Shown piece after piece: positions 1-58,496 of a stretch of 64,000 nucleotides of DNA. Below the pieces are notes generated by a model. That model was given only the letters and a program-made list of their open reading frames with translations, made no database searches and was not told the origin of the DNA. A program made the translations under genes and the position numbers. This stretch comes from Scenedesmus sp. PABB004 (Eukaryota): contig CM026547.1 in NCBI GenBank assembly GCA_014905635.1, positions 124,001 through 188,000 on the forward strand. Reading direction: 5' to 3'. The first letter of the stretch is position 1. Every line of letters begins with the position of its first letter.

Positions 1-348
1 GCCGACCGTCTGAAAACCACGCCGACCGTCTGAAAATCCGTACGCTCGGACACACGCAGCGGTCACCCGCGCCCGGCGAGAGCCTCCCGCGATGTGCACA
101 GCCGGCGGTGATCGGGCGACTGGGGCGCGCGCGCTGCCGGCAGCCCCAAGCCGGCGCGCGCCGCGATGGGCAGCCTGCGAGGCGCGCGTGGTGCGTGCGT
201 CGCGGCCGCTCGGACCGCGCACTCCGCGCCGGGCGCGTTCCGGAAGATTCAAGCCGCCGCCCGCCCCGCGCGCCCCGCCCCCGCCCCGCCCCGCCCCGCC
301 CGACCCGTCAGGCGCCTCGGCTGAGGGCGTGACGGGCGCGCTGGGTGC

Positions 349-1930
349 ATGGCGCCGGAGCCGGAGCCGCCGCCGCAGCCCGCGGCCGGAGCAGCGGCGC
401 CGCGGCAGGCGCCCGCCGGCGGCGGCTTCGCGTACCAGGAGGTGGGGGCGGGCGCGCCAGGACCTGCCGGGGCACGACTGCACCCAGTGCCGCCGCCGCC
501 GGCGCGCCCGCGCCGTGCGGCGGGCGCAGCCGCAACCGCAGCCCGCCGGCGGCCGAGTGCCACACCGCGGCGGGCCGGGCCCTGGCTGCGCAGCGCCGTG
601 GATGCCAGCGAGGCGGCCATGCGTCTGCGCAAGCCCTCAGCTCCTGCAGCGGGAGGTCGCCGGCGCTGCGGTCCCTGGCGGAGCGGCTACGGCTGGCGCT
701 GGCCGCGCTGACCGCCGCCGGCGACGCGACGGTGGAGGCGACCTCGCAGCCATGGAGGCGGGAGGCGCTCGTGGTGCTGCGCCATGGCAGCCTGCGCCAT
801 GGCAGCCTGCCACGAGCGCCTCCAGCGGCACCTCGCGCGGCCGCGCGGCGCGGCGGCGGCGGCGGCGGCGCCCGACTGGCAGCCGGATGCCGTGCAGGCC
901 TGTTGGGCGACTGCGGCGCCCGACTGACGGCCGCGCGCGGCCACCTGGCGGCCGCCGCAGCGGCCGCGCAGGGTCGCGCTGCGCCAGCGCCGCCGGCCCA
1001 GCAGCAGCAACAGCAGCAGCCGCCGCCCGCGCCGCGCACGCCCGGGGAGGCGGCGGCGGCTGTCGCGGCGCTGCGTCGCGAGGCCTCGGCCGGCGGGCGC
1101 CGCGCGGTGTGCGCGACGCTCGAGGCGGCGCTGGCTGCGGCGACCGCCGCCGGCGCGGCGACCGCCGCCGGCGCCGGCGTCGCCCGGCGGCCGCAGCGGC
1201 GGCAGGCACCCGCCGCAGCGCGCCGGCGGCGTGCGGCAGCACCCCGACGTGCTCGTCGCGGTCGCGGGCGCGTGCAAGGTGCTGCGCGCCCTGCGCTCGC
1301 GGCACGCCGCGCGCGTGGTGCTGCCCAAGCGGCGCGCCTCCACGCTGGCGCCAGGTGCAGGTGCTGGATCCAGCACCTGCACCTCTGTCCGCCTCGGGCA
1401 CGCAGGCGCTGGATGCTGCGCTGCGCGCGCGCCTGGCCGGGGCGCCCGCCGCGGGCCAGCCGGCCGGCCAGCCGCCGCCGCCCAGCACCGCCCCGCCGGG
1501 CGGAGGCGCCCCGCCGCCCGCGCCGCCGTCCCAGCGGGACTATCAAAGTATGCATCCCAAACGGGGTCTATGAATCAAAGTATGTGTCCCAGACGGGGTC
1601 ATAGACCCCGCTTGGGATGCATGCTTTAATTTTGGCCGGCGCCCCGGGCGCGCGCGCGGCGTGCTGCATGCCAACTCAAAGGTCAACCGAGCCCGCAAAG
1701 CGGCTCGTTGACATTTGAGTTGGCGGCGCTGCAGGTGCGCGTGCGCGTCGAGGGCGCCACCGACCCCGCCCCGCGCCGCGGCCAGCGACTGCCGGCAGAG
1801 CACCGCAGTGGCGGCAGCGCGGCGGCTGCTCTGCGACGCGCTGGCGCCGCACAGCGTGGCCGACGAGGCGGCGCTTGACGCGCTGCCGCTCGACCCGTGC
1901 GAGCTGCGCGGCGTGGAGGGCCTGCCGCCA
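349..1930 (+). CDS. Possible spliced hypothetical gene (or gene remnant) interleaved with the hairpin cluster
   Basis: ATG at 349 (MAPEPEPPPQ...FAYQE) is followed by a GT donor. Protein-like segments occur downstream (HPDVLVAVAGACKVLRAL; LLCDALAPHSVADEAALDALPLDPCELRGVEG). No family recognised and the exon chain is not resolved. Confidence 0.25.
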
Positions 1931-2679
1931 AGTCGCGGCACAAATCATGCGCGCCCGGCCTGGGTCAGGGTGATTTGTGCCGCGACTTGGCGGCAGGGCC
2001 CGGGCTGCACGCGCGTCGCGCACCGCCGCATCGCGCAGCGGCGCTGCCCCAACGCGCCGCGCCACCGCAACGCGCGGCGGTCTTTATTCTTATCATGCGC
2101 TTCGCCGCGTAGAATAGAATAAGGACCGCCGCGCACCGCGACGTGCGCGGGATTGAGCGCCACCGCAGCTTTGGCAGCAGGGGCGGCCGGGACGGCCCGG
2201 CGGCGGCGACTGCGTGCATCATGTGCTGGGCAATGCATTCGCATGTAGTTTGCTTGCGTGCCGTGCAGAGTGTGCGTGGCGGCTGCGGAAGCACGGGCCG
2301 CTGAAGCAGCGCGCGCTGCATGACCTGGCCGTACGCAGTCAACTGGATGGCGGCATGCTGCCGCCGTACGCAGTCAACTGGATGGCAGCATGCAGCGTGC
2401 TGCGATCCAGTTGACTGCGTACGGCCAGGCCGGCATGCATGCCGCGATCCAGTTGACTGCGTACGGCCAGGTCTTTGTGCGCGGGCGCGTCCGGCCGCAC
2501 GCGCGCCTGCCCGCCGACCTGCGGTGCTCGTCCATCATCATCACCGCGGCGACGCGCCGGCGGCAAGTGATGATGGACGAGCACCGCACAAGCATCAATT
2601 GTACATGCACCGCAGCTTTTCCATGCGGGCCGCGCACATGGCGCATCACGCATTGAGAAGCTGCGGGGCATGTACGGTT
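761..2679 (+). ncRNA. Cluster of stem-loops, candidate polycistronic miRNA/small-RNA precursor
   Basis: Inverted repeats read directly at 761-823, 1353-1384, 1542-1630, 1670-1724, 1921-1997, 2072-2134, 2322-2473, 2520-2588 and 2597-2679. Function is inferred. Confidence 0.55.
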
Positions 2680-3488
2680 TGCTGCAGTGCCCCGGGTGCA
2701 CGGTCGCCGCGCCGCGCGACGACGACGCGACGCGGCGCGCAACATTCGCGCGCTCACGCTGCACGCGTTGTCTGACGCGCGCGCACGGGAGCCGCGGGGG
2801 CTGACCGCGCCGGCAGCAGGGGGCTGACCACCGCGCCGCGCGTGCTGCGCCGCAGGCAAGCGCGCGTGCCGCGCCGGCGCCGGCGCTGCGGGCGCCGCGC
2901 CCCCGCGCGGCACCTCGTCCGGCCGGGGCGCGTTCCTGGAGGAGCAGGAGGGCGAGGAGGACGTGGCGGGCGGGCCGGAGGAGAGCGCGCCAGCGCCCGC
3001 GGGCGGCGGCGCCAGCGCGGCAGGGCGGCCGGGCCCGCGGGCTGCGCGGCAGCTTCGCGGCCGGCCAGGCGCCGGCGGCGAGCCTGCTGCGGAGTAGCGG
3101 GACGGCCCCCCGCAGCTGCGCATGGAGCCTGGAGGTGACCGGCGGTCCCCTGTGCCAGGCGATGTGCGCACCTTGGCCGCGAGCTCGCGCAGCGCAGACA
3201 GCCGGCGCCCCTCCGCTCGGCAACTGCAAACTCAGCGTCGTGCGCAGACGGCCGGGCGCTGCTCTGGCTCCGGGGTTTGAGGCCCGGTTGTGCTGGGGGC
3301 CTCGCAGTCGCCTCCCGAGCCCCCGGCCGCGCCCCACGCCACTGCCTCGCCGCCCCGACACCCGGGCCGTGCCCGCACGCGCCGCCGAGCCAGCACCGAG
3401 CGAGCTCCGTGCGCGGCTAGCCGGGCGCCATCACGCGTTTGCACCGCCCCGCCCGCGCCCCCGGACCGCCCGGGAGCGGGGCGACACG

Positions 3489-4472
3489 ATGAGGGCGGGC
3501 TGCTGCTCCCACTGCCGGGCGACGTCGAGCCCCTGCTGGCGCAGGTGGGCGCCGTGCGGGGCGCGATGCTCCCCCGGCCAACAACGCGCCTCGGCGCGCG
3601 CAGGCGCTCCGCGCGCCCGTTCCCGGGCGTCCCGAGCTCTCGGGCGGCCCAGGACGGCGCGGGCGGGGCCCGGACGGCCGCGGCGGGGGCTCGCTGACCA
3701 GGCACCAGCGCCCGAGCCAGCCCGCCCCCCGAGCTCATCCGGCCTCCCCCCGACCCGCCGCAGGGGGCCGCCCGGCAAGCCCATCCTGTGCAACGCCTGC
3801 GGCGCGCACTACCTCAGCAAAAAGAGCCTCGACGGCTACATGCCCAAGCACGCAGCGGCGCGCGCCGACGCGGCCAACGCGCCGCACCTCGCGCACGCGC
3901 AGCAGGTGCTCGCCGCGCAGGCGGCGCAGCAGCAGCACAGCCACTCGTCCAGGTGCGCGCGCGGCGCGCGGCGGCACGCTGGCAGCCGCGCGCGCGCGCC
4001 GTGCGGCGCGCTGCGGCGAGGGCGGCGCGGCGCGGGGGCGCGTGCAGATCGCGCGGCCGCTGCTGCGCAGGTACAACAACGGCGACCTGTACCCCGGCTA
4101 CGCGCCGAGCAAGCGCCACTGGTCGCTCGCGCACCTGCCGACCGACAGCAGCAGCGGCGCGAGCAGCCTCTGCAAGGAGGCCGCCGTCGACGACCAGGCG
4201 ACCGAGTGCAGCAGCAAGCGGCCGCGCCTGGTGTGCTGCCGCGTGTACGAGGTGCGCGGTGTGGCTGGCGGCGGTGGCTGGCCGCGCCCCGCCTCACGCG
4301 CGCGCGCGCGCCGCCTCACGCGCGCGCGCTGCCCGCCGCGCCGCAGATCGACCCCGCCAACGCGAGCGCGCTGCGGCTGCTGAAGACGTTTGAGACGTCG
4401 GACGGCGTCGTGCTCACCGTCATCCGGCGGCCCCGCAAGCAGGCCAAGCCGCGCGCGTGCGCCGTCGCGTGA
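3489..4472 (+). CDS. GATA zinc-finger transcription factor (about 4 exons)
   Basis: Spliced CSHCRATSSPCWR|RGPPGKPILCNACGAHY gives C-x2-C-x18-C-x2-C; GPPxKPxLCNACG resembles plant GATA26/27-type fingers. TGTAA at 5165-5169. Confidence 0.85.
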   Translation: MRAGCCSHCRATSSPCWRRWAPCGARCSPGQQRASARAGAPRARSRASRALGRPRTARAGPGRPRRGLADQAPAPEPARPPSSSGLPPTRRRGPPGKPILCNACGAHYLSKKSLDGYMPKHAAARADAANAPHLAHAQQVLAAQAAQQQHSHSSRCARGARRHAGSRARAPCGALRRGRRGAGARADRAAAAAQVQQRRPVPRLRAEQAPLVARAPADRQQQRREQPLQGGRRRRPGDRVQQQAAAPGVLPRVRGARCGWRRWLAAPRLTRARAPPHARALPAAPQIDPANASALRLLKTFETSDGVVLTVIRRPRKQAKPRACAVA

Positions 4473-5642
4473 GCCGCCGGCGCGCACCCGCGGTGCACGC
4501 GCGCGCGGGCGGCGGCGGGCCCAGGGAGAGCCCATTCGTTTGACCGCAGCAGCAGGCAGTCGACCTGACCCCCTCCCTAAACCGGCGCGGCAGCTGCCGT
4601 CGCCCCCCGTGTACCAGTATTGGGCGCAGCGGCGCCCCGCGGCGGCGGCGCCCAATGCCGCGCCCGCCGCCCGGGGCGCCCTTGACCGGGGGTGGCTGAA
4701 ACATGCACCCCCGCGCACTTTTTTCGCGCGTGCGCCGCGCCGCGTCGCCCTGCGGCGCGGCGCGGCGCGCCGGCAGGATGCCGCTGCGGCGCGCGGCGGC
4801 GGGCCTGCGCCGCGCCGCCGCAGCGTGTTTGTGTGTGTGGGTGACTGGCCAGCAGCAGGGCTGGCGGTGTGTTTTCGTGCCCGCGTCGGAGCCACCTCGC
4901 TGGCGCTGCAGCAGCCTTCTGCAGCCGGCGGGTGGGCCGGGCGCGCGCGCCGCCCGCGCGGCGCCGCCGACGCGCGGGTGGTGTGGTAGGTCGTGGTGAC
5001 GGGGCGTGGCAAACGAACGCAACGCGGGCAGCGGGCGGCGTGTGCGGGGGCGTGCGCAGCTCTTCCGGCGCGGCATCTTGACCTGGGGGCGCGCGTGCGT
5101 GGTGTACCACCAACGGGGCGCATCGTGGGCCCTCCGCCTCTTCACGTGTGTGTGTGCGCGTGGCTGTAAACTAGTGGCGGGCGCGGCGGCCCCTGCATGC
5201 ATCTGGGTGCATGCGCGGGCGGCGGCTTGCCTGCCGGACCCCTGACGGCCTCGAGGGACTGTTTGACTCCTCGACCCCTTGACATCATCATGAATGTACC
5301 CTCCTAGGCTCCGCGCGCGTGCGTGCGCGCCGCCGCCCTGCAGCCAGGGCGCGCGGCGCGCACGCGCGCGCGCGCGCGCTTTTCCCGGGCAGGGCGGGCG
5401 GGGGGCGCGCTGGCGGGGTGATCGGCGGCGCCACGCGACGCGACGCACGCGGCGGAGGGGCGCATGAAGAACGGAGCGGAACGCGGGCGGCGAGGTGACC
5501 GCGCGCTAGCCCTTCCTTCCCCTCCCGCCGCAACTCTCTCTCGCTCTCTCGCCCTCTCCCGCACCCGCGCGCGGCGCCAGCATGCAGCCCGCCGCCGTGC
5601 ACCGCGCCAGCCCCGCGCCGCGGCTCGTGCTGCTCGTGCTGC

Positions 5643-6796
5643 TCAGCGTATGGTCGAGATGAACTCGTTGTACGCCGACTCGAGCTCAAACAGCAGCTGC
5701 CGCACCTCGTCGCCGCCGAGCTCGTAGCTCGCGGGCTGGCCGTAGAGGCGGCTGTACCACGCCTTGACGCTGCCCTTTGGCCCAAAGTCGGGCGGCAGCG
5801 ACTCAATCTTGCTCATGCTGCCCATCAGGTCGCTCAGGATGGGGCACACCTGCGCACCGCGGGCGGACGCGCGGGCGCGGGGTGGGGCGGGCGGCTCGGC
5901 CCTTGCAGCCCCGCCCGCCGCCATCGCCGCCGCCGCCGCCGCGTCACCGCCTCGGCTGCGCCGCCGCGGCTGCGCCACACGCGCACCTGGTCGACGGCGA
6001 CGAGGTTGAGCTTGAGCGAGTCCATGGCCGTGATGAAGTGCTGCACCGTCTCGGCGACCGCGCGCGCGCCGCCGCCGCCGCCCTCGCCCGGCCTGGCGCG
6101 CGCCGCGGGCGGGCGGTGAGGCGAGGCGCCGCGGGACGGCCGCGCGCGGGCTGCGCGGCCGTGCTGCTGCCGTGTGCGCGCCGCACCGCTTCCTGTGCTC
6201 GATCGTCGCGGGCAGGCCGACCTGGACGAGGCGCGTGTAGGCCATGGGGCACTGCATGTGGTACGACTGCATGAACGCCTCGATGCTCGGCACCTGGCGG
6301 CGGCGCCGCGGCGGCGCGGCGGGCGCGGCGGCGCGGGCCCGTGAGCGCGCGCGGCGCGGCAGCGCGAGCGCGTGGGCCGCGGGCTGGTGCGCGCGCGCGG
6401 CGCCCCCGGCGCGGCGCGCCGGCGGCCCCGCCGGCGGCGCACCGCGTCCTGCATGGCGCCCCAGAGCATCTTGAACTGCGCGATCAGCTTCTCGCACGCC
6501 GCCTCATAGTCGGCGGCCGCCACGCCGTCGCGCACGTACGCGCGCTCCAGCTTCTCCGTGCACTTGAGGATGGCAAACAGGTCTGCCATCATGCAGGGCG
6601 CGGCGCGGCGCGGCGCGGCGCGCGGGCGGTTGCTGCCGCACGCCGCACGCAGCAGCGGCGGTTGCCGCGCAAACGCGAAGCCGCCGCGCCCGCAGCGCCG
6701 CTCCTCGCGCGCCGCCGCACCCGCCAGGTTCTCGTACTTCTCCCGCTCCTTGGCGTTGGCCCACAGCCGGACCTCGCTGAGGCTGCTGGCGCTCAT
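5643..6796 (-). CDS. VPS28: ESCRT-I subunit VPS28 (about 5 exons)
   Basis: EVRLWANAKEREKYENLA|DLFAILKCTEKLERAYVRD...AETVQHFITAMDSLKLNLVAVDQ...RQLLFELESAYNEF. Confidence 0.95.
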
Positions 6797-7235
6797 CGCG
6801 GCCCCGCCCGCGCGGGCGCCGCTGCTGCTGCGCCGCCGCCGCGCCGCCGCGCCGCCGCGCGCTGCCGCCGCCTGCCGCCGCTGCTCTACCTGCAGATGCG
6901 CAGGGCCGGGGACGGAGCACGGGCGGTGCGGCTGCTGCCGCGCGGCGCTGGGAGCGGCGGCGGGCGAAAAGCAGCTGGTGCGGCCCCTTGCTGCGCGCGT
7001 GCGTGCTGCTGCAGCGTCCCTGACGTTCACAGGCGTCTTGGCTACGCGTTCGGGGCGCTGGAACCGCGCAGGGAGCCGGGCTGCAGCGCAGGCGAGCAAA
7101 ACCGGGCTGGTCCGGGGCAGAACCGCGCGGCCAGCGCCCGTTCGACGCCCTGCGCGGGCTGAGTGTCCCCGGGATCGCATCGACCACACCCGCGGCCCGC
7201 CGCGACGCAACCACACGCCGCGGCGCCCCGGCGCG

Positions 7236-7664
7236 ATGGCGGCGCGGCCGTCGTCGGCGGCGTTCGCCGCGGCCGTGTGCGGCCCGCGGCTGGCCACCAG
7301 CGCCGACTACTTTGCCCTCGTCTGCGGCGCCGACGCGCCGCCGTCGGCGCTGCTGCTGCGGCTCGCGCTGAGCGGCGGCGGAGCGGCCGGCGGAGCAGCA
7401 GCGGCAGCGGCAGCAGGGCCAGCAGCGGCAGCAGCGGCAGCAGCAGGAGCTGCACCAGCAGAAGCAGTCGCACCAGGCGCAGCAGCAGCCGCAGCAGCCA
7501 CAGCAGTCGGCGCGCGACCGCTCGCGCTGCTGGCGGGCGGCCTGCTCGAGTTCAGTCTGTGGGGCGGCGACGGCGGCGGCGGCGCGGCGGCGGGGTACGG
7601 GGCCGAGCCCGGCTGGCTGGCGGAGCTGCCGGCGCTGGTCGCGCAGGCGCGGTTGCACCTTTGA
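7236..7664 (+). CDS. Hypothetical Ala/Gly-rich protein, divergent from VPS28
   Basis: ATG-to-TGA ORF with protein-like segments (SADYFALVCG; LLEFSLWGG; WLAELPALVAQARLHL); no family recognised. Confidence 0.4.
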   Translation: MAARPSSAAFAAAVCGPRLATSADYFALVCGADAPPSALLLRLALSGGGAAGGAAAAAAAGPAAAAAAAAGAAPAEAVAPGAAAAAAATAVGARPLALLAGGLLEFSLWGGDGGGGAAAGYGAEPGWLAELPALVAQARLHL

Positions 7665-7939
7665 GTTCAACGGATGCGCAGCATGCGAGCTGTGTGGTTC
7701 AAGCAAGCAAGAGCATTCCTTTCAGGCACGATATGGCGCGCGCTGCAATGATGCGCGCGCGCGTGCGGCCCCACCCCCCGCCGTGCTGGCGACACCTCCT
7801 CCTGCGTGCGTGAGCGCGTGCGTGCGTGCTGCTGCGGCCTCCTGCGCGCCCAAGCCACCCCCCCCCCTTCTGTGCAAACACACACACACAGCCGGCTGGC
7901 CGCGCTCGCCCGCCCCGCGCCGCCGCGGCGCCGATCGAT

Positions 7940-10900
7940 CTACCTGCTGAGCCCCGGGAAGATGAAACGGCCGGGGCTCGTGACCTTGCCGGGGCTCGCC
8001 GCCAGCCCCCCGGCCTGCCGCGGCGGCTGTAGCGGCGACAGCGGCGCCGGCGCCTGCTGCTGCTGCTGCCCCTGCGCGGCGCCCGCCGGCGGGCCGCCGC
8101 CGTCGTCGTCGTCGGGGCCGTCCAGCGCGCCGTCGTGCGCCTCGTCGCACTCCAGGTCAACCTCGCCGTCGTCGCCCAGCGCCGCGGCCTGGTCGGCGGG
8201 GTGCCGCACGTCGGGCATGTCGACGTCGCCGTCGGGGCCGCCCAGCACCAGCACGCGCTGCGGCCGGCGCCGGGCCGCCGCCGCCCAGGCCGTCGCCGCC
8301 TGCGGCAGCAGCGCCGCCACGCCCGGCGCGCCGCCGCTGGCGCCCGCCTCGGCCGCCATCGCCGCGCTGGCCAGGCTGCCCAGCAGGTCGCGCGCCGCCG
8401 CCTCGCCCGCGCCGGCGCCGGCCGCGGGGGCGCCGCCGCTGCGGCCGCGGCCCCAGGAGGCGGCGCCGCCCTGCTGCTGCTGCCCCTGCTGCCCCTGTTG
8501 CTCCTGCTGCTCCTGCTGCTCCTGCTGCTCCTGCTCGGCGCCCCAGGCCTGCGCCTGGTGCCGCCGCGCCGCGCCCGGGCTGCCACCGCCGCTGCCGCCG
8601 CCGGCGCCGGCGCCGTCGCCGTCGCCATCGCCCTCGCCGCCGTCGCCGCCGCTGTCGCGGCTGTCGTCTCCGTTGCTGCCGTCGCTGCCGCTGCTGCTGG
8701 TGGGCTCGTGGGGCATGTGCGCCGCGCGGAAGGCGGCGTCCTCCGCCGCGAGCTTGCAGCGCAGCGAGCAGTAGCGCGACTCCGCGTCGCGCAGGCTGCG
8801 CCCGTCGGCGACGCACCGCCCCGCGAGCTGGCGGCGCACCTTGTTCTGCTGCGGCCGCGGGCGCAGGTAGAGCACCGCCTGGCCGTTGAGCGGGTACGCC
8901 TGCACGCCGCTCACGTCGGCGACGCCCGCAACGTCGGCCGCGCGCACAAAGTGAAAGTCGGTCGACACCTGCTGGCTCCGGCTCACGTGCAGCAGGCCCG
9001 GCAGCAGCACCGAGAGCTCGGGGCAGTAGTTGCAGTAGCCCCGCCCCGGGTGCCCGGGGTCAAAGTAGCGGATGAGCTTGTCGCGCCCCGTGCTCGACCG
9101 CCCCTTGCGCGCGCCCGTGCACTTGGGGCAGGGCTTGAGCAGGAAGTCGCACGTCACGAGCTCGTGCAGCCACGCCACGCTGCCGCCGGCGGCGGCGGCG
9201 CCGCCGGCGGCGACGGGCGGGCGCGGCGCGGCGGGCGCGGCGCCGCCGGGCGCGCCCGCGCCGCCGGCCAGGCCCAGCAGGCCGGCCGGCCACGCGGCCG
9301 CCGCGGCGGCCGCGGCGGCCGCGCCGCCGCCGTGCGCCGACAGCAGCGACTGGCGCGCCTGCAGCGCCGCGAGCTGCTGCCGCCAGCCGCTGGCCTGCAG
9401 CTGCACCTGCAGCGTGCCGCCGCCCCCGCCGCCGCCGGGGCCCGCGCCAGACGCGCTGTACGCGGTCGGCAGCAGCTCCAGCTCGGCCGGCTGGTGCGGC
9501 AGCTCGCGCGGCGCCGCGGCGGCGGCGGCCGCCGCGGCCGCCGCGCGCGCGGCGCGGCGCTGCGCCGCCGCCTCGGCCTTGGCCGCGCGCGAGCGCTCCG
9601 CGCGCCGCCGCGTGTCCTCGGCCTTGGCCGCGCGCGCCTCGGCCTTGGCCGCGCGCGCCGCCGCCTCGGCGGCCTCCGCCTCCTCGCGCGCGCGCGCCGC
9701 CGCCGCCTCCTGCGCCGCCGCGCGCAGGTGCGGCGGCGCGCCGCCGTACCTGGCATACTTGTGCGCCGACTTGCGGCCCATCGGCAGCGGCGGCGGCGCG
9801 GCACCGCCCGCAGGCGGCGACGCCAGCGCCGGCGGCGCGTGCGCGGGCGCGGGTGCCGCCTCCTGCGCCTGCTGCGCGCCGGGCGGCTGCGCCCGCGGCG
9901 CCGACTGCTGGCCCTGCTCCTCCTGCCCCTGCTGCCCCGCCGCGCCGTCGCTCGTGGTCGTGCCGCTGGTGGCGGACGCGCGCGCCGCGCCGTCCGCGCC
10001 GCCGCCGCCGCCGCCCGCGTGCGCCGCGCGCGCGGCCGCCTTGGCCGCGGCGCGCGCCGCCTTGGCGGCGGCGGCCGCCGCCTCGGCCGCGGCCGCGGCC
10101 TCCGCCTCTGCCGCGGCCTCGGCTGCCGCGGCGGCCGCCGCGGCGGCGCGGCGCGCGCGCAGCGTGGGCGCGTGGTCGGCGATGAAGCGCGCGTCCTCGC
10201 GCTCGAGCTTGCACGCGACGCTGCAGTACGCGTTGTGCGCGTCGAGCAGGCCGCGGCTGCACCCCGGCCCGGCGCAGACCGCGGGCGGCGTGCCGATCGC
10301 GGCGCCGCGGCTGGGGCGGGGATGGAGGTAGACCATGCGGCCCTTGTTGCCCGCGACGACGTAGCGCTGTATGTCGGCCACGTCCACCGCGGCGGCGAGC
10401 ACCTCCGGCTCGAGGCAGAGCAGCGCGCCGCCCTGGCGCTTGATGCGCAGCAGGCCGGGGCGGTGCGGGAGGCCGGGGCAGAAGCTGCAGAAGGCCGCCG
10501 CGGGGTTGGCGGGGTCGAAGAAGCTCAGCAGGCTGCCCCAGCCCTTGTGCGACGGCGCGCAGCGCGGGCAGGGCGTGAAGAGGTGCTCCGCCAGCAGCAG
10601 CGCGTACAGCCAGCCGCGCTCGCCGCCGACGAGCGCGGGCGGCAGCGCGCCGCCGCCGCCGGCGGCGCCGGCGCCGCCGTCGGCGTCGCCGAGCAGCAGG
10701 CTGCTGCTGCTGCCCGCACGCGAGCCGCGCGCGCCGGAGCGCCGCCCGCCGCTGCCGCTGCGCGCGCCGCTGCGCGAGGCGCTGCCGCGGCTCTTGTTCG
10801 GCCGCGCCGGCGGCAGGCCCGCGGCGCGCTTGGCGCTCGGCCAGGCGTCGAGCATCAGCGCCGCGTGCGGGTCGTCGTCGTCGTCGCCGTCGCGCAGGTT

Positions 10901-20623: not shown

Positions 20624-20720
<97 letters not shown>

Positions 20721-23700
20721 CGCAGCGTGCCGGCAGGGACGGCGGCGTGCAGTGAAGCCGAGAAAAGGTCGGCGCGCGGTGCGCGGCGCACGCTGCGCAC
20801 GGGCGGCGCGCGCCGCCGCGCCGCACCGAGCGCGAGCGCGACGGCCATGTCGACGACGCTCACTGCCAGCAGCGCCGCGTCGAAGCGGTTCCACCCGCTC
20901 TTCCAGTAGCCCTCCCACCCCAGGCCGCCCAGCTGCGCGTGGCGGGCGAGGGTTGACTGAGCGCGAGGGGGAGGCGCGGGCGCGGTGCCGCGCCCTGCCG
21001 CCGCCCGGGGGCCAGCGTGCGCGTGGGCGGCTGTGTGGTGTGCCGCCGCCCCTGCCGCCGGCGCCGGCGCGCCTTGAGGCCGAACTCGAGCACGTAGGCG
21101 CAGGTGAAGGCGTAGTTGAGCGCCTCGACCGCGGCGACCATGGCGGGCGGCTGCCCGTGGTGCGTCGTGGCCATGAGCGCGCTGTTTGCCACAATGAGCG
21201 CCATGAGCGCCACCTCGAAGCGCTTGCTCTGGACCAGGTGGTACAGCCGCCTGGCCGCGCGGGCGCGCGGCGGGGCGCGCGAGCGGTGTGCGAGGGCGCG
21301 CGGCGGCGGCGGGCACCGGCGGGCGGCCGGCGGGCGGCGGCCAGCGCGCGGCGGCGCTCACTTGCGGAAGCGGTTGACGGGCACGGGGCTCTTCTCCGGC
21401 GGCTTGAGCCGGAACACGAGCCGGCTGAGCTCCACCCACTCGGTCTGGTCGTCGGTCAGGAACGCGCTGCCGGTCTGGCTCTGCAGCCGGATGCGGCTGA
21501 ACTGATAGAACACCACGCCTGACACACACCACACACACGCCAGCAGCCGCGGCGGCGCCCGGCGCCGCGCAGCGTCAGGCGTGAGGCTCGCCGGCGGCGG
21601 GCCGCGGGCGCGCGCGCGCGGCCGAGCGGGGCGCGGGTGCCCGCGCGTGCGCGCGTGCGCGTGAACCAACATGCGCGTGCGGCGCGGCGCGGCCGCCTCA
21701 CCGATGTAGAGGTTGAGCAGCGTGTAGGCCACGACCAGCACAAAGGCGGCAAAGAAAAAGAAGTTGGGCCAGCTGGACATCGGCCGCGGCTGCAGCCCGC
21801 GCTCCGTGGGCACCGCCATGGCCGCCGACATGATCTCTGCGCGCCGGCGTGGCGCGGCGCGGCGCGGCGCGGCGCGGCGCGGCGCGGCGCGGCGCGATGG
21901 CGTTGGTGTGAGCATTGCCCCTCGCGCGCCGGGGGGCACCGCCGCGCACTGCTCCTGCTCCTGCTGCTGCAGCTGCGGCGCACCGGTGTAGCCGTTGAGC
22001 GTGGCGGTCACAAAGAGGCTGACCATGGCCATGCCAAGGTTGTCAAAGTTGTAGGGCTGGTTGGACCAGCGCCGCGCCACCTCCTGCGCCGCGTGCGCGG
22101 CGGCGAGCGCGGCGCGGCCGCGAGTGAGCACGCGCAATGGCGCGGCAGCGCGGCAGGGCGCGGCAGGGCGTGGCGCGGTGCACCTGGCCGGCGTCGTCGA
22201 CAAAGCTGCCGACGCACTCGGCCTGCCCGGCGACGCTTGCGTCGTTGCAGCTGTAAAACATGCCGTGGAAGAGCTGCCGACGGCGCGGCGCGGCGCGGCG
22301 CGGCGCGGCGCGGCGCGGCGTGGGCCGGGCGGCTGACGCGCGCGGGCAGCCCGACGCCCGGCGAGGGCAGGCCAGGCCGGCGGGCCCGGCAGGCGGGCCG
22401 CACCTGGACGCCGAGTATGGCAAAGATGAGGAAGAAGAGCGCCACCACGATGCTCACGTTGCCCATGGCCGCCACGCTGCGCGGGGGGTGGCGGCGCGTG
22501 GGGCGGCGCGTGAGGCGACGCGTGAAGCGGCGCGCGAGGCGGCGCGCGAGGCGACGCGCGGCAGCGTGCTGCAGCACGCGGTGGCGTGAGGCGCGGGGCG
22601 CGGGGCACCACCCAGCCCGCCCGCGCCTGAGCGTGAGGCTCTTGAAGATGAGCTGCATGCCCGCCGAGCGCGTCAGCGCGCGCAGCGGCTTGACCGCGCG
22701 CAGCACGCGCAGCGCCTGCGGCCGTTGCGGCAGCGCGCGCGCGCCGTGGGCGCGCCGGCTGACGCCCGCGGCCGCCGCCCGGTCCCACGCTCGCGCGCGC
22801 GCGCGGCCGCGCCTTGACGATCTCCAGGTTGAGGCTGTCCAGGAAGATGAAGGCGAGGCTGGTGAGCACGATGACCGCGTCGACCTGGTTCTGCACGTAG
22901 CCCAGGTAGGGGCGCAGCCCAAACGCAAAGACCTTGAGCGCCGCCTCGGCAGCAAACGCGGCAGTGAACACGACGTCGCTGCGGCGGCGCGACGCGGCGC
23001 GGCTGAGCCGGCGCGGCGCGGCCCTGCCGCGGGGCGCGGCGGCCGCGTCGCCGCCTCGGCCGCGCGCGCGAGCCCACGCGCGCGCGCGTGCCTCCAGAAG
23101 AGGGTGCGGCCGTCGAGGTGCTCACGCGACATGTGGGGGTGCTCGTAGGCCATGGCGCCGCAGTTGGCGATGATGAGGGCAAACATGACGTAGTCAAAGC
23201 CCCGGCTGGTCACCAGGTCGTACACGGCGCACCTCAGCGCGTTGGTCTCGCCAAAGAGCCACAGGCTGCGCCCCGTGAGCTCGGGGAAGGTGCGGCTGCG
23301 CCGGCTGCGGCTGCCCACGCTCCACGCGCCTGTGCGCGCGGCGGCGGCACGCGCGCGTGGGCTCCCCCGGGAAGGGGCCGCGAGCGTGCGCGCCAGCCCT
23401 TATGCACGCCGCACCCGACTGCGAGCCCGTGCCGCCGCTGCCCGCGCTGAGGCCGCCGTCGCTGCCCATGGACGCGGAGCGCGACAGCCGGCGCCCCCCG
23501 GCGCCGCCGCCGCCCGACGTGGCACTGGGCGCGGAGCTTTCGACGCCGCTGGCGGCGTCAGACTGCCGCGGCAGCGCGGGCACGCGGGCAGTGCGCTGGT
23601 CAGGCGACGCGGCGTAGCGAGGCGCGCGCGCGTGCGCCGGCGCGGCGCGCGCAGCCGCACCTGGCCGCGCGAGCCGTGGCGCCCCGAGGCGGCGCCGCCC

Positions 23701-34145: not shown

Positions 34146-36357
34146 ATGTCCAGCACGGCGCGGCGGCGGCCGGTCGCGCCGGCGGCGCCGGCAGCAGCAG
34201 AAGCGCCGAAAGCTGCCGTCCACGCCGGCGCGCCCGCGCGGCGCGGTGCCGCCGGCGCCGCCGGCGCGCCCCTGGCTCGCCTGGCGCTGCTGGGCGCGGC
34301 GCTGGCGGCCGCCGCGGCAGCGCTCGGCGGCGCGTGGCTGCTGGCGCCGGCGTTGAACGAGCAGCCCGCGCCAGCGCTGCCGCCGGTCGGCACGGCGCGT
34401 GACACCGTGGTCGGCAACGCGACCATCAAGCCCGCGCTCGGCATCTTCCCGCGCGGCTGCAAGTGGCGCGACGTGAGCGTCGCGGGCGAGCCGCGCGTGC
34501 GGTACGAGTTCTGGCACGCCGGCGGCGCAGGCGGCGCCGCCGGCAGCGGCAACGTCACCGGCGGCGGCGGCGCCTGGCGCGCGCGCGCGCCCGCGCGCGT
34601 GCACGCTCGGCGGCCTCGCCGCGCCGGCGGGCGGTCCGTGGGCCTTCCACAAGGGCAGCCCGCGCACCGAGGTCGTGCCCGCGGATCACCACGTGACCTA
34701 CAGCAACCTCTGGTACAACGCCGGCCGCTGGTACGCGCTCGTCGAGGGCGACCGCGCGGTCGCGCCGTGGCGGTTCAGCAAGAACCAGGAGGTCGCGCCG
34801 CTGCACGTCGCCGACGCGGGCGCGTGGGCGGCCAGCGTGCGCTGGCGCGCCGTGCCCGGCGACACGCTGCTGTTTGACTACATCTTTTTCGTCCACCCCA
34901 CCGCGATCGGGCACTGGTGGGAGATGATGGCGCCCCTGTACTCGGTGCTGAAGGCCTCGCGCGGCGCGGCGCGCGGGCGCGGGCGCGGCCGCGGCGGCGG
35001 CGGCGACGCGCCGTTTGCGCGGCCGGCCGACCAGGTCGTGCTGCTGCACCTGCAGCGCACGCACCTCATGGAGTGGGTGCGCGCGGTCATGGCGGTCGGG
35101 CTCGGCGTGCCGCGCGGCGGCGAGCTGCCGCCGATCCTGCTGCAGACGGCGGGCGACGCCGTGTGGCAGCAGCTCGGTGCGCGGCGCGGGCGCGCGGGCG
35201 CGGCACCACCTTGCGCGCCGCGGCGCTGCCAGTGCGGCGCGCGCGGCTGACGCGCGGCCGGCCGCCGCGCCCGCCCGCAGTGATGCCGCTGGAGGGCGTC
35301 GCGCCGGACGAGTGGGTGGTTTTTGACCGCGCCCTCATCGTGCGGTGAGCTGGGCTGCCTGCCGCTGCCGCAGCCGCATGCTCGGCGGTCTGGCGTGCAG
35401 GCGCGGCCCGCTGAGGCCGACACGTCCGCACCGCGCAGGGACCTGTTCACGGGCGGCGGCCGCAGCTTCACCAGCACCGCCGACGCGCGGGCGTTCAGGG
35501 CGGAAGTTTACCAGGCATACGGTGCGGGGCGGCGGCTCCAGCGGCGCGCCGCGGTCAGCAGCCTGCGGCAAACACGCCGCCGCCGCCGCTGCGTCCGCCG
35601 CATCCGCGTCGCCGTCGCCGCGCCCAGGCCTGCCGCCGCCGGGGCGGCGGCGGCGCGTGCCGCGGGTGATCACGTTCCAGCGCAAGGCCGCCAACCGGCG
35701 CGTCACGAACGAGGCGGGCCTGCTCGCGCTGCTCGCGCGCTACGGCCGCGTGCACGTGGTCGAGTTCAACGCGAGCACCTCGTTCGCCGACCAGCTCGCC
35801 ACGATGGCGGCGACGGGCGTGTTTGTGTCGGCGCACACCAGCAACCTCGCCAACGCGGTCTTCCTGCAGCCCGGCAGCGCCGTCGTGGAGCTCATACAGC
35901 GCCACTGGACGTGGAACCGCATCGACCAGAGCTTCCGCGACCACACCACCGCGCTCGGCGACGTGCACCACTTTGCGTGGCGCGCGAACCGCGCCAACGA
36001 GAGCACCTACCTCTCCCCCCGCGACGCCGCGCGGTGCGGCGCGCGGCGCGCGGGCGGCGCGCCCCGCCCCGCCGCGCCGCGCCGCGCCGCGCCGCGCCGC
36101 GCCGCGCCGCGCCGCGCCGCGCCGCGTCCGCCCCACCCCCTCCGCCGGCGCGGGCGCGGGCGCTGCGGGGCGGCGGCAGGTTTGCCGACTGGACGACGGC
36201 CGAGTGCGTGACGGAGGACTGCACCGAGGCCTCCACGCGCGTCGACATCACCGTGGACCTGCCCGCGCTGCAGGCGCTGCTCGACAGCCGCCTGCCGCTC
36301 GTGTTTGCCGGCGCGAGCGTCGCACGCGCGGCACTGCCGTGGCCCGACGCGCTGTGA
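34146..36357 (+). CDS. Type II membrane glycosyltransferase family 61 (DUF563)-like protein
   Basis: N-terminal TM segment; GHWWEMM; FQRKAANRRVTNE..SFADQLATMAATGVFVSAHTSNLANAVFLQPGSAVVEL is a GT61-type C-terminal motif. Apparent frameshift near 34580-34600. Confidence 0.8.
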
Positions 36358-42382: not shown

Positions 42383-45300
42383 ATGGCGGCGGCGAGCTCG
42401 GGCGGTCGCGACGACACCTGGTTCACCCAGGAGGTCTCGGTGCCGGAGCCGCTCAAGCTGGGCCCGCTGTCGGCGACGTCGAGCGCCAGCTCCGCGAGCA
42501 GCCTGGGTGCGGCGCCTGCGCCCGCGCCGCCGCGCCCGCGCCTGCGCCGGCGCCGGCGCCGGCGCCGGCGCCGGCGCCCACACCGCCGCCACCGGCGCGC
42601 AGAACTGGAGGTGTCCCGCCTCGCGCAGGCGCTGCGGCGCATCAGCGCGCCCGTGTCCATCACCGCGGTCGACTACTCGTGCACGCGGGCGCGCTTCTAC
42701 TCCGGTGCGCCGCGCCGCGCCGCCCGGCCGCCTGCGTGCCGCGGTGCGCCGCTGGCCGCGAGCCCGCGCGCGCGGCGCCGCCGCGGCCGCAGACCTGGAC
42801 GGAACCAACCTCGGCGCCTTTCTGTCGTCGCCGCGGCCCGCGTGGTCGGCGGTGCGCTGGCTGGTCGTCGACGGCGTGGACGGCGGCGTGCTGCAGGCGC
42901 GGCGCGGCGGCGGGGCCGCACGACGACGCGGCCGCGCGGGGCAGGCCGCACGGCGTGCGCACGGCGCGCGCACGCCGCGCGCATGCCGACGCGTCGCCGC
43001 CGCCGCCGCCGCCGCGTCTCGCAGCTGCTGGCCGAGGCGTACGACCTTCACCCGCTGGCGATCGAGGACGTGCTGACGTTCCAGCGCATCAAGAGCGTCA
43101 CGTAAGGGTTGAAGGAGTTAGGGAGTTTTAGGGTTTAGGGTAAGGGTGACGGGCGGCCTCAAGAGCGCCACGCACGCCCCGCCGCGTCAGGTACGGCGGG
43201 CACACCCACGTCGCGGCGCACCTGTGGTCGCTCAAAAAGTACAAGGCGCAGCACGACGGCGCCCTCGCCTGCCCGCTGCGCCCGGGCGCGGGGCCGGGCG
43301 CCGCCGGCGCGGCGGCGTGCCCGCTGCCGCCGGCGGTCGCGCGCGCGCGCGGCGCGGCACCGGTGCCGCTGTGGGAGAGCCGGCACGGCGGCGCCGAGTT
43401 TGGCGGCCGCGCGACGCCGAGCGGCGCCAGCGACGGCGGCGCGGCGAAGCAGCAGCAGTCCGAGTGGCGCGTCGACCTGGGCGGCGCCGGCGGCGGCGGC
43501 GCCGGCGGCGGCGGCGCCGGCGCCGCCCGGGCGCCGCCGGCGGGCCGCCCTGGCACCGCCGCGCGGCGCGCGGCCGAAAAGGCGGCGGAGCGGCTTGCCG
43601 CGGAGCTGCTTGACGTGAGTGAGAGCGAGCTGAGCCTGAGCAGCATCGACAGCGGCCTCGCCGACGACCACGGACCGGCCTCGGAGGCCGAGGGCTCGGG
43701 CGACACGCCGGTGAGCGGGGCGCCGCCGCGGGCCGCCGCCATGCGCGCGCGGCGCGCCGCCAAGCGCACCGGCCTGTTACGCAGGCCGAGGCGGGCGCGC
43801 GCGACCGCATCGGCGGCTGCGCATACGGGCGGCGGCACGATGCCAGCGTCACCGATTACAACGGCTGCCCGGAGCGGGAGAAGGCGCGGGAGCAGGCGCG
43901 CGCCGAGGCGCTGGCGCGGGCGCAGGCGGAGACGCAGGGCGGCCCGGCGGCGGAGGCGCCGGCGGCGCAGGCGTCCGAGCCTCAAGCGGGGGCGCCGCCG
44001 CACCGGCCGCCGCACCGGCACCACGGCAGCGGCAGCGGGCACCACCGCCACGGCCCCGCGCTCAGCCGGGAGCTGCTGGCGGCGCACGAGGCGGCGCAGA
44101 GCCCCGCCGACCGCACCGCTGAGGCGCTGGCGCGCGCCGGCGTGCTGCCGCCGCCAGCCCAGACGCCGCCGGGGCCGCCCGCGGAGCCGGCCGAGGCGCC
44201 CCGGCTGCCCACGCTGCTCGACGCGCCGCCGCCGGGCTCCGACTCGCACCACGGCAGCCTGGAGCTGGCGGACAACAGCCCCGCGGGCAGCCCGACGTCC
44301 CCCGACGCCGGCGGCCTCGCCGGCGCCCGCGGCGCCGCGGCCGAGGCGCGGCCGCCGCCGCCGGCGCCGGCGCCGCGGCGCGCGAGCCGCGCCGCCGGCG
44401 ACGTGAGCGTCGGCGGCTACGCGGGCCGCGGCGCATCTGGGGGCGGCGGCGTGAAGCTCGTGCTGCCGCTGCACTCGAGCGCGTTCAACTACCGCCCCAC
44501 CTCGACCTGCCTCAAGCGCCGCCGGCTGATGATGCAGCAGGTCTCGATCTTCCTGCACCACAGCGGCACGCTCATCTCCATCTTCCCAGGCCAGGCCGCC
44601 GGCGGCGGCTCCGCGGCGGCCAAGGCGCGGCGCGCCGCACGCGCCGGCCCCGCCCCGCGGCGCGCGCGCGCGCGCGCCGCGGTGGCGGCCCACGCGCGTG
44701 CCGCGGCGCCTGCGCCGCCGCAGGTTGCGGGGCCGCTGCTGCGCGCGATCCGTGGCATGTCGAGCCTCGTGCTGGAGAGCGAGGACGCAAGCTTCCTCAT
44801 GCAGGCGCGGGCGGGCGCGCGGGCGCGCGTTGGGGCGCGTGTCGTTGGGGCACGTGTTGTTGGCCGGCCGCGTGCGGGAGGGCGTGCAGCGTGGGGGCAG
44901 GGCCTGCGGCGCTCGGGGGCCTGCGCTGCGGCCGACGGCGCCCGCGGCCGCGCCCACTGCACCCCCCGCCAGGCGCTGCTGCGGAGCTGCATGAGCTACA
45001 GTCTCCCTGTCTTCAGCCGCATCGCCGACCTGGTGCGCCGACGCACCGACAGCGCCGGGGCGCGCGCGCGGCGGCGGGCTCGGGCCGCGGGGCTCGAGCG
45101 TGCCCACGCGCGGCGCCGCAGGGCCGCACCCCGCGGGGTCGCACGCCGCCGCGCCGCGCCGCCGCCGCGCGCCGCGCAGGTGGGGCGCCTGGACGCGCGC
45201 GTGCTGGAGGGCCGCGCCGCGATGAAGCTCACGCGCCGCCTGCACGTGCTCTACATCGACCTCGCCATCCTCGCGCGCAGGTGGCGGGCGGGGCCGCGGG

Positions 45301-45581: not shown

Positions 45582-47172
45582 GGCACCGCCGGCGGCACCG
45601 CCGGCGGCTCGAGCAGCATTGAAGGCAGCAGCGGTGGCGGTGCGGCCGCCCGGCGCCGCGAGCGGCGGCGCGGCAGCGCGGTGCGGCAGGCGCCGCGCGG
45701 CAGCGAGGGCGCCGCGCCCGGCGCGGGCGGCGCCGCGCCCGGCACGGGCGCCACCACGGGCGGCAGCAGCCCCGGCGGCGGCGGCGGCAGCAGCGGCAGC
45801 AGCAGCAGCGGCAGCAGCGACGCGCCCGTGATCATCAGCCGCCTCGCCAAGCTCTACCTGGAAGACCTGATGGACCAGGTGGGCGCTGGGTTTAGGGCAT
45901 TGCTGGGTTTTAGGGCAGTGAAGGCCCCGCTCTCATGAGAACAGCCCTGCCTAGAGCTCTCGGCTCGTACGCGGCGGAGCGAGGGTGCGGGGCGGACTAC
46001 GACCCGCGACGCGCGCCCCCGCCGACCGCCGACCACCGCCGCCGCCGCGTCCCCAGGCCGACGCCGTCGCGGCCGACCTTAGCGCGCTCACGGAGCACAT
46101 CGCGCGCCTGGTGCGCCGCTGGCGGCCTGGCGCCCGCGCCGCGGCCCCTCCCTCCCTTTCCTTTTCACACCCGCCGCCGCCGCCGGTGCTGCAGAACGAG
46201 CTGGTCGTGTCGTCGGTGTCCCACGGCAACGAGAACGCCAACATGACCCTCGCCCTCATCGGCACGGTGCGCGGCGCGGCCTGCAGCGGCCGCGACACGG
46301 CCGTCGCGGCAGCGGCGGGCCCCCGCGCTGGGCTGCCCCGCGGCCGCCGCGCCCACGCGCCGCCCACGCGCGCGGCCGCTGCCGCCTGTCGCCACCGCCT
46401 GGCGCCGCAGGTCTTCCTGCCGCTCACGTGGATCGCGGGTGCGGCGGGGGCGCTGCTATGCTCGCCGGGGCGCTGCGCGCGCGCTTGCGGCGCACCCTCG
46501 CGCCCCGCCCGCGCGCCGCCACGCTTTCAAACCCGCCGTTCAAACCCCCCGTTCAAATGCCCCTCAGGCATCTACGGCATGAACTTCGAAGTCATCCCTG
46601 AGCTCCACTGGGTGCGTGCGCCGCCGGCGGCGCGGCGCCGCCCGCGGCCAGGCCGCAGCGCCGCCTCCGCCCACACGCCCCGCCCTGCCTCGCCCCTCGC
46701 CCATCACCCCGCCTCGCCCCTTTGCCCCCGCCCCACTCCCTGCGCCCGCCCCGCCCTCAGTCGTGGGGGTACGAATACTTTTGGATGCTCTGCGTCGGTG
46801 CGGCTCCGCATGGGGGCGCACGCCCAGACCGGCGCACCCCGACCGCCGCGCCCTGACTGCCGCGCCGCGCCGCCGCCGCCGCACCGCAGTCGTGACGTGC
46901 GCCGCGCTGGTGCTGATGTGGCGCATGCGGCTGATCAAGGTGCGCCGGGCGGTCAGGGCGCGCGCCGGACGGCCGCGGCGGGGGGCCGCGCGCGTCGCGC
47001 CGGGGGTCGCTGGCTCACGCGCGCCGCGTGCCCGCCCGCCCCGCAGTTCAAGCCGCCGCCAGCGCTGCGCCGCGCGAAGCGCTGGTTCAAGCGCACCGCG
47101 CTGCGCCTGCTGATCGGCGTGGCGCGGCCGCGGCGCGGCGCGGTGCGGCAGGCGCGCGCCAAGACCGCGTGA
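42383..47172 (+). CDS. CorA-family Mg2+/divalent cation transporter, multi-exon
   Basis: VRWLVVDG, YDLHPLAIEDVL, QQVSIFL, LYLEDLMDQ, NMTLALIGT|VFLPLTWIA|GIYGMNFEVIPELHW (GMN signature) followed by a second TM helix. Confidence 0.9.

Positions 47173-58433: not shown

Positions 58434-58496
<63 letters not shown>

Follow-up and report, generated by a model that had tools for sequence, protein, structure and literature searches.

The DNA analysed here is a stretch of 64,000 nucleotides from Scenedesmus sp. PABB004 (contig CM026547.1, positions 124,001 to 188,000), referred to below as the window. Near its start it encodes a GATA zinc-finger gene on the + strand. An inverted-repeat scan identified eight lower-GC, near-perfect fold-backs adjoining this gene (H2-H9, spanning 1353-2675) and a ninth, H1, which is GC-rich and the weakest of the array (Table 1).

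Table 1. Fold-back hairpins and neighbouring gene features (positions within the window; z-scores of the folds against dinucleotide shuffles, + strand/- strand).
Feature	Position	Strand	Description	z (+/-)
H1	758-826		arms 761-774 and 810-823, perfect 14 bp	-4.7/-5.0
H2	1353-1384		perfect 32-nt palindrome, no spacer	-5.6/-5.8
H3	1542-1630		32-bp stem, 3 mismatches	-9.1/-10.2
H4	1670-1724		18 + 5 bp stem, one G.A mismatch, one bulge, 8-nt loop	-9.0/-6.6
H5	1918-2000		perfect 27-bp stem, 1921-1947 with 1971-1997	-9.5/-9.8
H6	2072-2134		19-bp stem, one T.G pair, AT-rich inner stem	-8.5/-5.4
H7	2322-2473		nested, 69 pairs in MFE fold	-21.8/-18.6
H8	2520-2588		perfect 21-bp stem, 27-nt loop at 0.81 GC	-10.5/-9.9
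H9	2601-2675		27-bp stem, 3 mismatches, 21-nt loop	-9.0/-6.0
Exon Y of public model	1197-1354	+	GGRHPPQ...STLAP; GC3 ~1.0; coding score weakly positive	
Intron of public model	1355-2855	+	predicted; 1,501 nt; CAG/GTGCAG ... CTGAC ... CCGCAG/G; H2 (partly) to H9 inside	
Exon X2 of public model	2856-3097	+	ends in in-frame TAG 3095-3097	
GATA zinc-finger gene	3489-4472	+	CX2CX18CX2C split by intron 3546-3763; stop 4470-4472	

A single identical public protein exists, a chimeric gene model in which H2-H9 fall in one GT..AG intron. A first, sequence-only reading had placed the array upstream of a GATA factor, in agreement with this model, which sets H2-H9 in a + strand intron 5' of the GATA exons. 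The predicted intron is far longer than the neighbouring GATA introns (95-218 nt), and its annotated 5' splice site (GT at 1355-1356) is overlapped by H2, whose pairing would sequester it. The public model splices around the in-frame TAG closing exon X2; as a chimera skipping a stop codon, it leaves room for the predicted intron being intergenic instead. TGTAA, the poly(A) signal of chlorophytes, occurs on the + strand at 5165, downstream of the GATA stop, and nowhere between position 1 and that site. Ahead of the window start, exon X is encoded a second time in near-identical form, with 2 of 79 residues differing in the model protein, which shows that the segment was rearranged recently. A search for a duplication reaching from 1-1400 into 2600-5300 returned short GC-rich matches only. 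The one locus matched by the GATA C-terminal exon lies on a bacterial-looking contig of 64% GC and was discarded as a chance match rather than a related locus.

The hairpins do exist, and their concentration exceeds chance by a wide margin. About nine hairpins within ~1.9 kb had been proposed, one of them with a ~70 bp stem, and this description stands, since the scan recovered near-perfect fold-backs at all nine positions and H7 forms 69 pairs. On both strands, each of H1-H9 folds better than 200 of 200 dinucleotide shuffles, with z-scores from -4.7 to -21.8, and a global fold of 1340-2870 retains all eight of H2-H9, showing that the units fold independently in a 1.5-kb context. Defining strict inverted-repeat loci by arms of at least 16, an identity of at least 0.93 and a loop of at most 80, we counted 25 in the window, seven of them in 1300-2700 and 18 across the remaining 62.6 kb, resulting in a 17-fold higher density in 1300-2700 than elsewhere in the window. 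Thirty block shuffles yielded 5.3 +/- 1.7 such loci for the whole window and 0.03 for 1300-2700, so that the local density survives the comparison with shuffled sequence. In a z-score scan of positions 1-39330, seven of the nine most negative windows fall in 1351-2610. The GC-rich inverted repeats outside 1300-2700 also exceed the shuffle expectation (18 loci against ~5.3 for the whole window). Perfect inverted repeats elsewhere in the window include 34175-34268 and 58490-58537.

The array is set apart by its composition. GC content is 0.60 in the arms, 0.71 in the loops, 0.78 in the spacers and 0.79 in the 64-kb window, and all repeats with arms of at least 16 and a hairpin GC below 0.70 are located at 1353-2675, every other one having at least 0.82 GC. 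The statement of the sequence-only reading that most hairpins are A/T-richer than their flanks agrees with this, H2-H9 being AT-richer than their surroundings and H1 being GC-rich, with arms at 0.79 GC. The lowest GC is found in H3 (0.46-0.48), and in H5 GC-rich outer pairs extend the stem, which encloses a 23-nt loop at 0.83 GC. The other low-GC islands inspected in the window are exons, UTR-like ends or simple repeats, suggesting the stems being either constrained or recent. An enrichment of CATG/GCATGC was put down to the reduced GC.

Hairpin sizes range from 32 to 160 nt across the array, and the stems of H2-H9 comprise 16-37 bp that are 89-100% paired, with an arm divergence of 0-11%. Among 247 stem positions, 236 are Watson-Crick pairs, four are G:U on the + strand, two are A:C on the + strand (G:U on the - strand) and five are of transversion type. 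Imperfect pairs had been described as mostly G:U on the + strand; this could not be upheld, G:U accounting for just 4 of the 11 imperfect positions. The + strand fold is the more stable one in six of nine hairpins, a difference that is not significant, and the strand signals, i.e. G:U counts and + strand stability, are weak. Different hairpins have nine 9-mers in common, compared to 4.7 expected and a maximum of 16 (overlapping H8/H9 flanks removed), which is at chance level and bears out the view that they are mutually unrelated. We found no second copy of any arm within the 64-kb window and no common termini among the hairpins.

We tentatively favour a reading according to which H2-H9 are evolutionarily young fold-backs, specific to this lineage, that lie in a non-coding part of the + strand and would act as Dicer substrates, resembling hairpin-siRNA or shRNA-like precursors more than canonical miRNAs. 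The stretch would be transcribed together with the + strand unit, each unit would fold on itself into a short, almost perfectly double-stranded hairpin, and a Dicer-like enzyme would cut each hairpin into one or a few siRNA- or miRNA-like duplexes. Such units would behave more like hairpin-siRNA (shRNA-like) precursors, or direct Dicer sites in a pre-mRNA, than like miRNA genes that are old and under selection; the fold-backs probably originated at the DNA level. In favour of this reading are the excess over chance, the independent folding, the low GC of the arms, the position of H2-H9 between the predicted splice sites on the + strand, the absence of TGTAA ahead of 5165, and one position at which the nested H7 copies differ (G:C versus A:T) while remaining paired. 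Judged by their sequence, the hairpins could feed a small-RNA pathway, and the host being a chlorophyte fits with an algal small-RNA reading.

The stem geometry bears on which class of precursor comes into question. With 0-3 mismatches over 19-37 bp, the stems of H3-H9 show the few duplex mismatches expected of a precursor, whereas H1 (14 bp) and H2 (14-16 bp) cannot accommodate a 21-nt duplex. Canonical plant or algal miRNA genes are recognised by miRNA/miRNA* reads of 20-24 nt with precise ends and 2-nt overhangs at the 3' end, and by their dependence on a Dicer-like enzyme. The stems of the array are too perfect for typical selected miRNA precursors, in addition to H1 and H2 being too short; young hairpin-siRNA loci typically have stems this close to perfect. 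At the gathering threshold, Rfam gave no match in the whole window, the best sub-threshold match being MIR810 (66.7 bits compared to a threshold of 170), and the sub-threshold matches occur on both strands, suggesting generic hairpin hits. Near-complementary targets of the arms within the 64 kb amounted to three GC-rich, chance-level matches, shuffled arms giving 11, 0, 0, 1 and 0. For Scenedesmaceae, a literature search yielded nothing useful about RNAi or small RNAs.

Several known systems place the fold-backs of one transcript side by side, as would be the case here, among them the Drosophila hpRNA endo-siRNA loci and the polycistronic miRNA clusters of animals and plants. Drosophila hpRNAs have far longer stems, which originate from target genes. 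In Chlamydomonas reinhardtii, introns or UTRs are the source of 61% of the high-confidence miRNAs, and DCL3 cuts hairpins embedded in mRNAs (Valli et al. 2016, PMC4817775). The array resembles these DCL3 hairpins in consisting of lineage-specific fold-backs of a green alga in an intronic or untranslated position, here a predicted one. It differs in having been identified by its sequence, whereas small-RNA reads and dcl3 mutants served to define the DCL3 hairpins, and in combining eight distinct hairpins in 1.3 kb, the word "cluster" being absent from the main text of that report (PMC4817775). An oversized intron carrying several hairpins, as predicted here, has been described for the third intron (~3 kb) of Chlamydomonas FRA2/BolA-like 2, which contains a supercluster of AGO1-bound small-RNA hairpins with products of >26 nt (Li et al. 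2023, PMC10226591). According to that report, the intron comprises five sense-strand hairpin small-RNA clusters, grew with cluster number and exceeds its orthologues, with precursors of ~60-80 nt compared to 32-160 nt for the present hairpins. The FRA2/BolA-like 2 hairpins are described there as Dicer-independent, imperfectly paired copies of one moderately repetitive element (PMC10226591); unlike these, the present hairpins are mutually unrelated and nearly perfect and are not copies of one element.

A considerable but somewhat unlikely alternative is that the array consists of functionless quasi-palindromes created by template switching during replication, or by fold-back (snap-back) repair, in a segment that was rearranged recently, any RNA hairpins being incidental. 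The low arm divergence agrees with such an origin, as do H2 being a spacer-less perfect palindrome and the tandem or nested duplications at the tips of H1, H3 and H7, which point to DNA-level turnover: the H1 loop contains a 15-nt tandem duplication, the H3 loop is a diverged direct copy of the H3 left arm, and H7 is built from one unit present four times, two direct and then two inverted, nested and with an invariant core of 21 nt. Spacer-less palindromes and tip duplications are typical of palindrome turnover at the DNA level. The recent copying of exon X next to the cluster and the excess of inverted repeats in the remaining window, some of them perfect, argue in the same direction. The polarisable changes among the H3 and H7 copies (five AT-to-GC versus two GC-to-AT) match the expectation for neutral decay in this genome. 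Template switching, however, copies neighbouring DNA, which here has 0.78-0.86 GC, yet the arms have 0.60 GC and do not follow the local composition. Neither the 17-fold density over the remaining window nor the grouping of eight unrelated low-GC segments is explained by this process.

Fold-back mini-transposons of several MITE-like families accumulated in one intronic or intergenic landing zone would be a rather improbable source of the array. Similar to MITEs, the units are compact, palindromic over their full length and AT-richer than the host DNA, and H7 has the look of a copy sitting inside the loop of a second one. A 10-bp direct repeat (CACCGCRACG, one mismatch) flanks H6 and one of 8 bp (one mismatch, P ~0.2) flanks H4, but the H6 repeat has a chance P of ~0.054 per site with nine sites tested, and seven of the nine hairpins show no flanking duplication above chance. 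The units thus differ from MITEs in having no consistent target-site duplication, no second copies in the window and no common ends. Exact scans provided no further copies: a 19-mer of the H7 core had no match in metagenome contigs, and seven 20-mers of H3-H9 had none in viral contigs, by which virus-derived arms were rejected as a candidate as well. The share of repeats in this strain, given as 1.31% in Table 1 of a comparative paper (PMC12571836), also speaks against MITEs.

It is very improbable that the hairpins interrupt a real + strand coding gene, running from ~349 into the GATA gene, as short introns or as palindromic insertions that are in frame or shift it. Several hairpins have a GT near their 5' base and an AG shortly past their 3' base, weak + strand coding-like periodicity is present between hairpins (691-750, 1201-1354, 1711-1760 and 1831-1915), and deleting one 16-nt arm of H2 fuses the upstream frame with a downstream ALDAAL... 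frame. At 79% GC, however, all frames are open by chance, and the codon score is too noisy for exon definition, having mis-scored the true frame of GATA exon 1. Among 95 ORFs of at least 50 amino acids in 1-9150, Pfam detected GATA and VPS28 only and no domain in 1-3400; no relatives were found for the ORF 1712-2119 among longer proteins or for residues 1420-1660 of the public model among shorter proteins. A precedent is provided by fungal symmetrical introns with terminal inverted repeats of 45-55 nt (PMC8469720). These internally symmetrical (stw)introns of Hypoxylaceae are described as lacking a flanking target duplication and could form double-stranded RNA, in both of which they resemble the present units, but they constitute one family of sister copies across many genes, whereas the present units are unrelated, not sister copies of one another, and lie side by side (PMC8469720). 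An assembly or sequencing artefact, conceivable in an extremely GC-rich genome that is hard to sequence, is hardly credible given eight different clean palindromes of distinct, non-adapter-like sequence that follow no known artefact pattern, spacers of ordinary local sequence and a record of 4.85 Mb carrying the public gene-model protein.

The small-RNA reading can be extended to a natural multi-shRNA operon, in which one + strand intronic or non-coding transcript would carry eight unrelated short hairpins beside the GATA regulator, kept AT-richer despite extreme GC pressure since the small RNA encoded by each stem would be directed at a distinct target gene or parasite. We consider this extension unlikely. 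If true, the locus would be without described precedent in green algae as a polycistronic array of non-homologous small-RNA hairpins, and it would show miRNA-gene birth in a living example. If the hairpins are silent DNA palindromes, the cluster would represent a fold-back mutation hotspot beside a recent exon duplication, which is of narrower interest. If small RNAs do arise here, a unicellular alga would be assembling unrelated young fold-backs into a small-RNA gene with several products, and the locus would serve as a compact model of how miRNA-like genes are born where GC pressure on the genome exposes constrained sequence.

We identified a real and striking array of nine inverted repeats (hairpins H1-H9, numbered along the window), with H2-H9 forming a lower-GC cluster at 1353-2675 and H1 being a GC-rich outlier. 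A sequence-only reading had proposed a polycistronic small-RNA cluster at 761-2679, and its hairpin coordinates were matched by an inverted-repeat scan and a second repeat search. For all nine hairpins, whichever strand is folded, the structure is more stable than every one of 200 dinucleotide shuffles (z-scores -4.7 to -21.8), and a global fold of 1340-2870 retains all eight of H2-H9. Applying strict thresholds (arm ≥16, identity ≥0.93, loop ≤80) resulted in 25 inverted-repeat loci in the window, seven within 1300-2700 and 18 across the 62.6 kb outside it, compared to 5.3 ± 1.7 in the whole window and 0.03 in 1300-2700 for 30 block-wise shuffles. The cluster is therefore ~17-fold denser than the rest and >200-fold above shuffles, and seven of the nine most negative windows of a sliding z-score scan over 1-39330 lie within 1351-2610. 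The 18 strict loci outside the cluster, against ~5.3 expected from shuffles for the whole window, suggest a general palindrome-forming tendency. The GC-rich inverted repeats at 5312-5374, 34175-34268 and 58490-58537 have arms of 18-22 bp, and two of the three are perfect.

Hairpins H1-H9 and exons of P0001, a public database protein mapped exactly onto the window
Feature	Position	Strand	Description
H1	758-826		GC-rich, 14-bp arms, weakest
H2	1353-1384		perfect 32-nt palindrome, no spacer
H3	1542-1630		32-bp stem, 3 mismatches
H4	1670-1724		stem of 18 + 5 bp
H5	1921-1997		27-bp perfect stem
H6	2072-2134		19-bp stem, 1 mismatch
H7	2322-2473		69 pairs in MFE fold
H8	2520-2588		21-bp perfect stem
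H9	2601-2675		27-bp stem, 3 mismatches
P0001 exon	1197-1354	+	
P0001 exon	2856-3094	+	
P0001 exon	3759-3953	+	
P0001 exon	4069-4251	+	
P0001 exon	4347-4469	+	

The G+C content is ~79% throughout the 64-kb window, in agreement with the 78.5% listed for strain PABB004 (39.8 Mb, 1.31% repeats; PMC12571836, Table 1). In the inverted-repeat scan all repeats below 0.70 GC fall at 1353-2675, every other repeat having at least 0.82. The arms show 0.60 GC (423 nt; window 0.79), the loops 0.71 (143 nt; H3 and H7 left out, their loops being extra arm copies) and the spacers between hairpins 0.78 (717 nt), confirming that most hairpins are A/T-richer than their flanks. The other low-GC islands inspected in the window are exons, UTR-like gene ends or simple repeats. 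The hairpin stems are therefore either under constraint or too recent to have taken on the composition of the genome. The small-RNA reading is plausible, but one of its supports, imperfect pairs being mostly G:U on the plus strand, is wrong: the 247 stem positions comprise 236 Watson-Crick pairs, only four G:U on plus, two A:C on plus, which read as G:U on minus, and five transversion-type mismatches. The plus strand is more stable in six of nine hairpins (26 kcal/mol summed), a hint that is not significant. Nowhere in the window did an Rfam family attain its gathering score, and the miRNA precursor models gave only sub-threshold matches, on both strands.

The DNA is eukaryotic, containing minus-strand VPS28 exons around 5650-6600 and, downstream of the hairpins, a plus-strand GATA zinc finger (both Pfam), the latter with the pattern CX2CX18CX2C interrupted by a GT..AG intron, a spacing we take to be plant-type. 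Plus-strand TGTAA, presumably the chlorophyte poly(A) signal, occurs in the whole window only at 5165, 22252, 39830, 49312, 52769 and 55672, and these sites likely are poly(A) signals; the decamer TGTAAACTAG is found at 5165 and 55672, each after a plus-strand gene. In the GATA 3' untranslated region, ATTGGGCGC and GCGCCCAAT form a 9-bp stem at 4619-4657 that encloses additional pairs; windows 4591 and 4681 of the sliding scan have z-scores of -3.7 and -6.0. Further features are telomere-like TTTAGGG/TTTTAGGG motifs directly after GT in apparent introns (~43100-43150 and 45900-45960) and an 85-nt tRNA-Pro(CGG) called by ARAGORN at 10055-10139 in ~82-84% GC surroundings, possibly a false positive. 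The very start of the window (1-40) carries a direct repeat of 20 nt (GCCGACCGTCTGAAAA...), and a minus-strand gene region includes a long (CA)n run (~20640-20730).

How the hairpins originated, which two DNA-level explanations address, and whether small RNAs are made from them are partly independent questions. In H7 a single unit occurs four times, twice in direct and then twice in inverted orientation, and has an invariant core of 21 nt; the outer and inner pairs have a common G.G mismatch and differ at one position (G:C versus A:T) without loss of pairing. H3 has two direct copies followed by an inverted one, and the H1 loop contains a 15-nt tandem duplication; these arrangements and the spacer-less H2 are marks of DNA-level palindrome turnover. 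Residues 1524-1602 of P0001 (1904 aa) are a near-copy of residues 1656-1734 (exon 2856-3094), with differences at 2 of 79 positions. The first copy is encoded before the window begins, and the segment beside the cluster was therefore duplicated recently. This neighbouring duplication, the near-perfect arms, the tip duplications and the generally raised number of GC-rich palindromes in the window argue for functionless inverted duplications arising by template switching or fold-back repair, an explanation which we nevertheless consider rather unlikely given the low arm GC and the clustering. Fold-back mini-transposons are improbable, as target duplications and, within the 64-kb window, second copies of any arm are missing: seven of nine hairpins have no flanking duplication above chance, and H6 is flanked by a 10-bp repeat with one mismatch (null probability ~0.054 per site, nine sites tested). 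Exact searches gave no match for one 19-mer (the H7 core) in metagenome contigs, nor for seven 20-mers in viral contigs.

Among database proteins, P0001, annotated by NCBI as hypothetical protein of Scenedesmus sp. PABB004, is the sole exact match to a GATA exon. Its first two exons in the window imply one intron at 1355-2855 (1,501 nt, versus 95-218 nt for the three GATA introns), with ends (CAG|GTGCAG and CTGAC...CCGCAG|G) similar to those found in the GATA introns. H3-H9 lie wholly inside, and H2 overlaps the 5' splice site. The H2 palindrome contains the annotated GT (1355-1356), which as RNA it would lock in a stem; a second CAGGTG is located just downstream. The public model is an unreliable chimera: it joins Peptidase_S8, SCAMP and GATA domains in one protein, avoids an in-frame TAG (3095-3097) by splicing, and misses the first two GATA-finger cysteines encoded at 3489-3545. 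The hairpin stretch may be the predicted intron or, alternatively, may lie between genes or represent a non-coding gene missing from the annotation. Hairpin introns or insertions within a real coding gene are very unlikely; no Pfam domains were found in 1-3400, and protein database searches returned no relatives. An assembly artefact is extremely improbable.

We tentatively favour a model in which fold-backs of recent, lineage-specific origin occupy a non-coding plus-strand stretch that precedes the GATA gene. If transcribed, putatively on the plus strand, each unit would fold into a short and nearly perfect double-stranded hairpin that a Dicer-like enzyme would cut; any target is putative as well, and no near-complementary target of the arms was found in the window. 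PMC4817775 describes introns or UTRs as the source of most high-confidence miRNAs in Chlamydomonas and DCL3 as cleaving hairpins in mRNAs. PMC10226591 describes a ~3 kb Chlamydomonas intron with five sense-strand hairpin small-RNA clusters, intron growth tracking their number; those hairpins are described as Dicer-independent copies of one repeat, whereas the hairpins studied here are, as the sequence-only reading had stated, unrelated in sequence, sharing no motifs above chance. They may be closer to hairpin-siRNA/shRNA precursors, or to direct Dicer cleavage sites in pre-mRNA, than to old miRNA genes.
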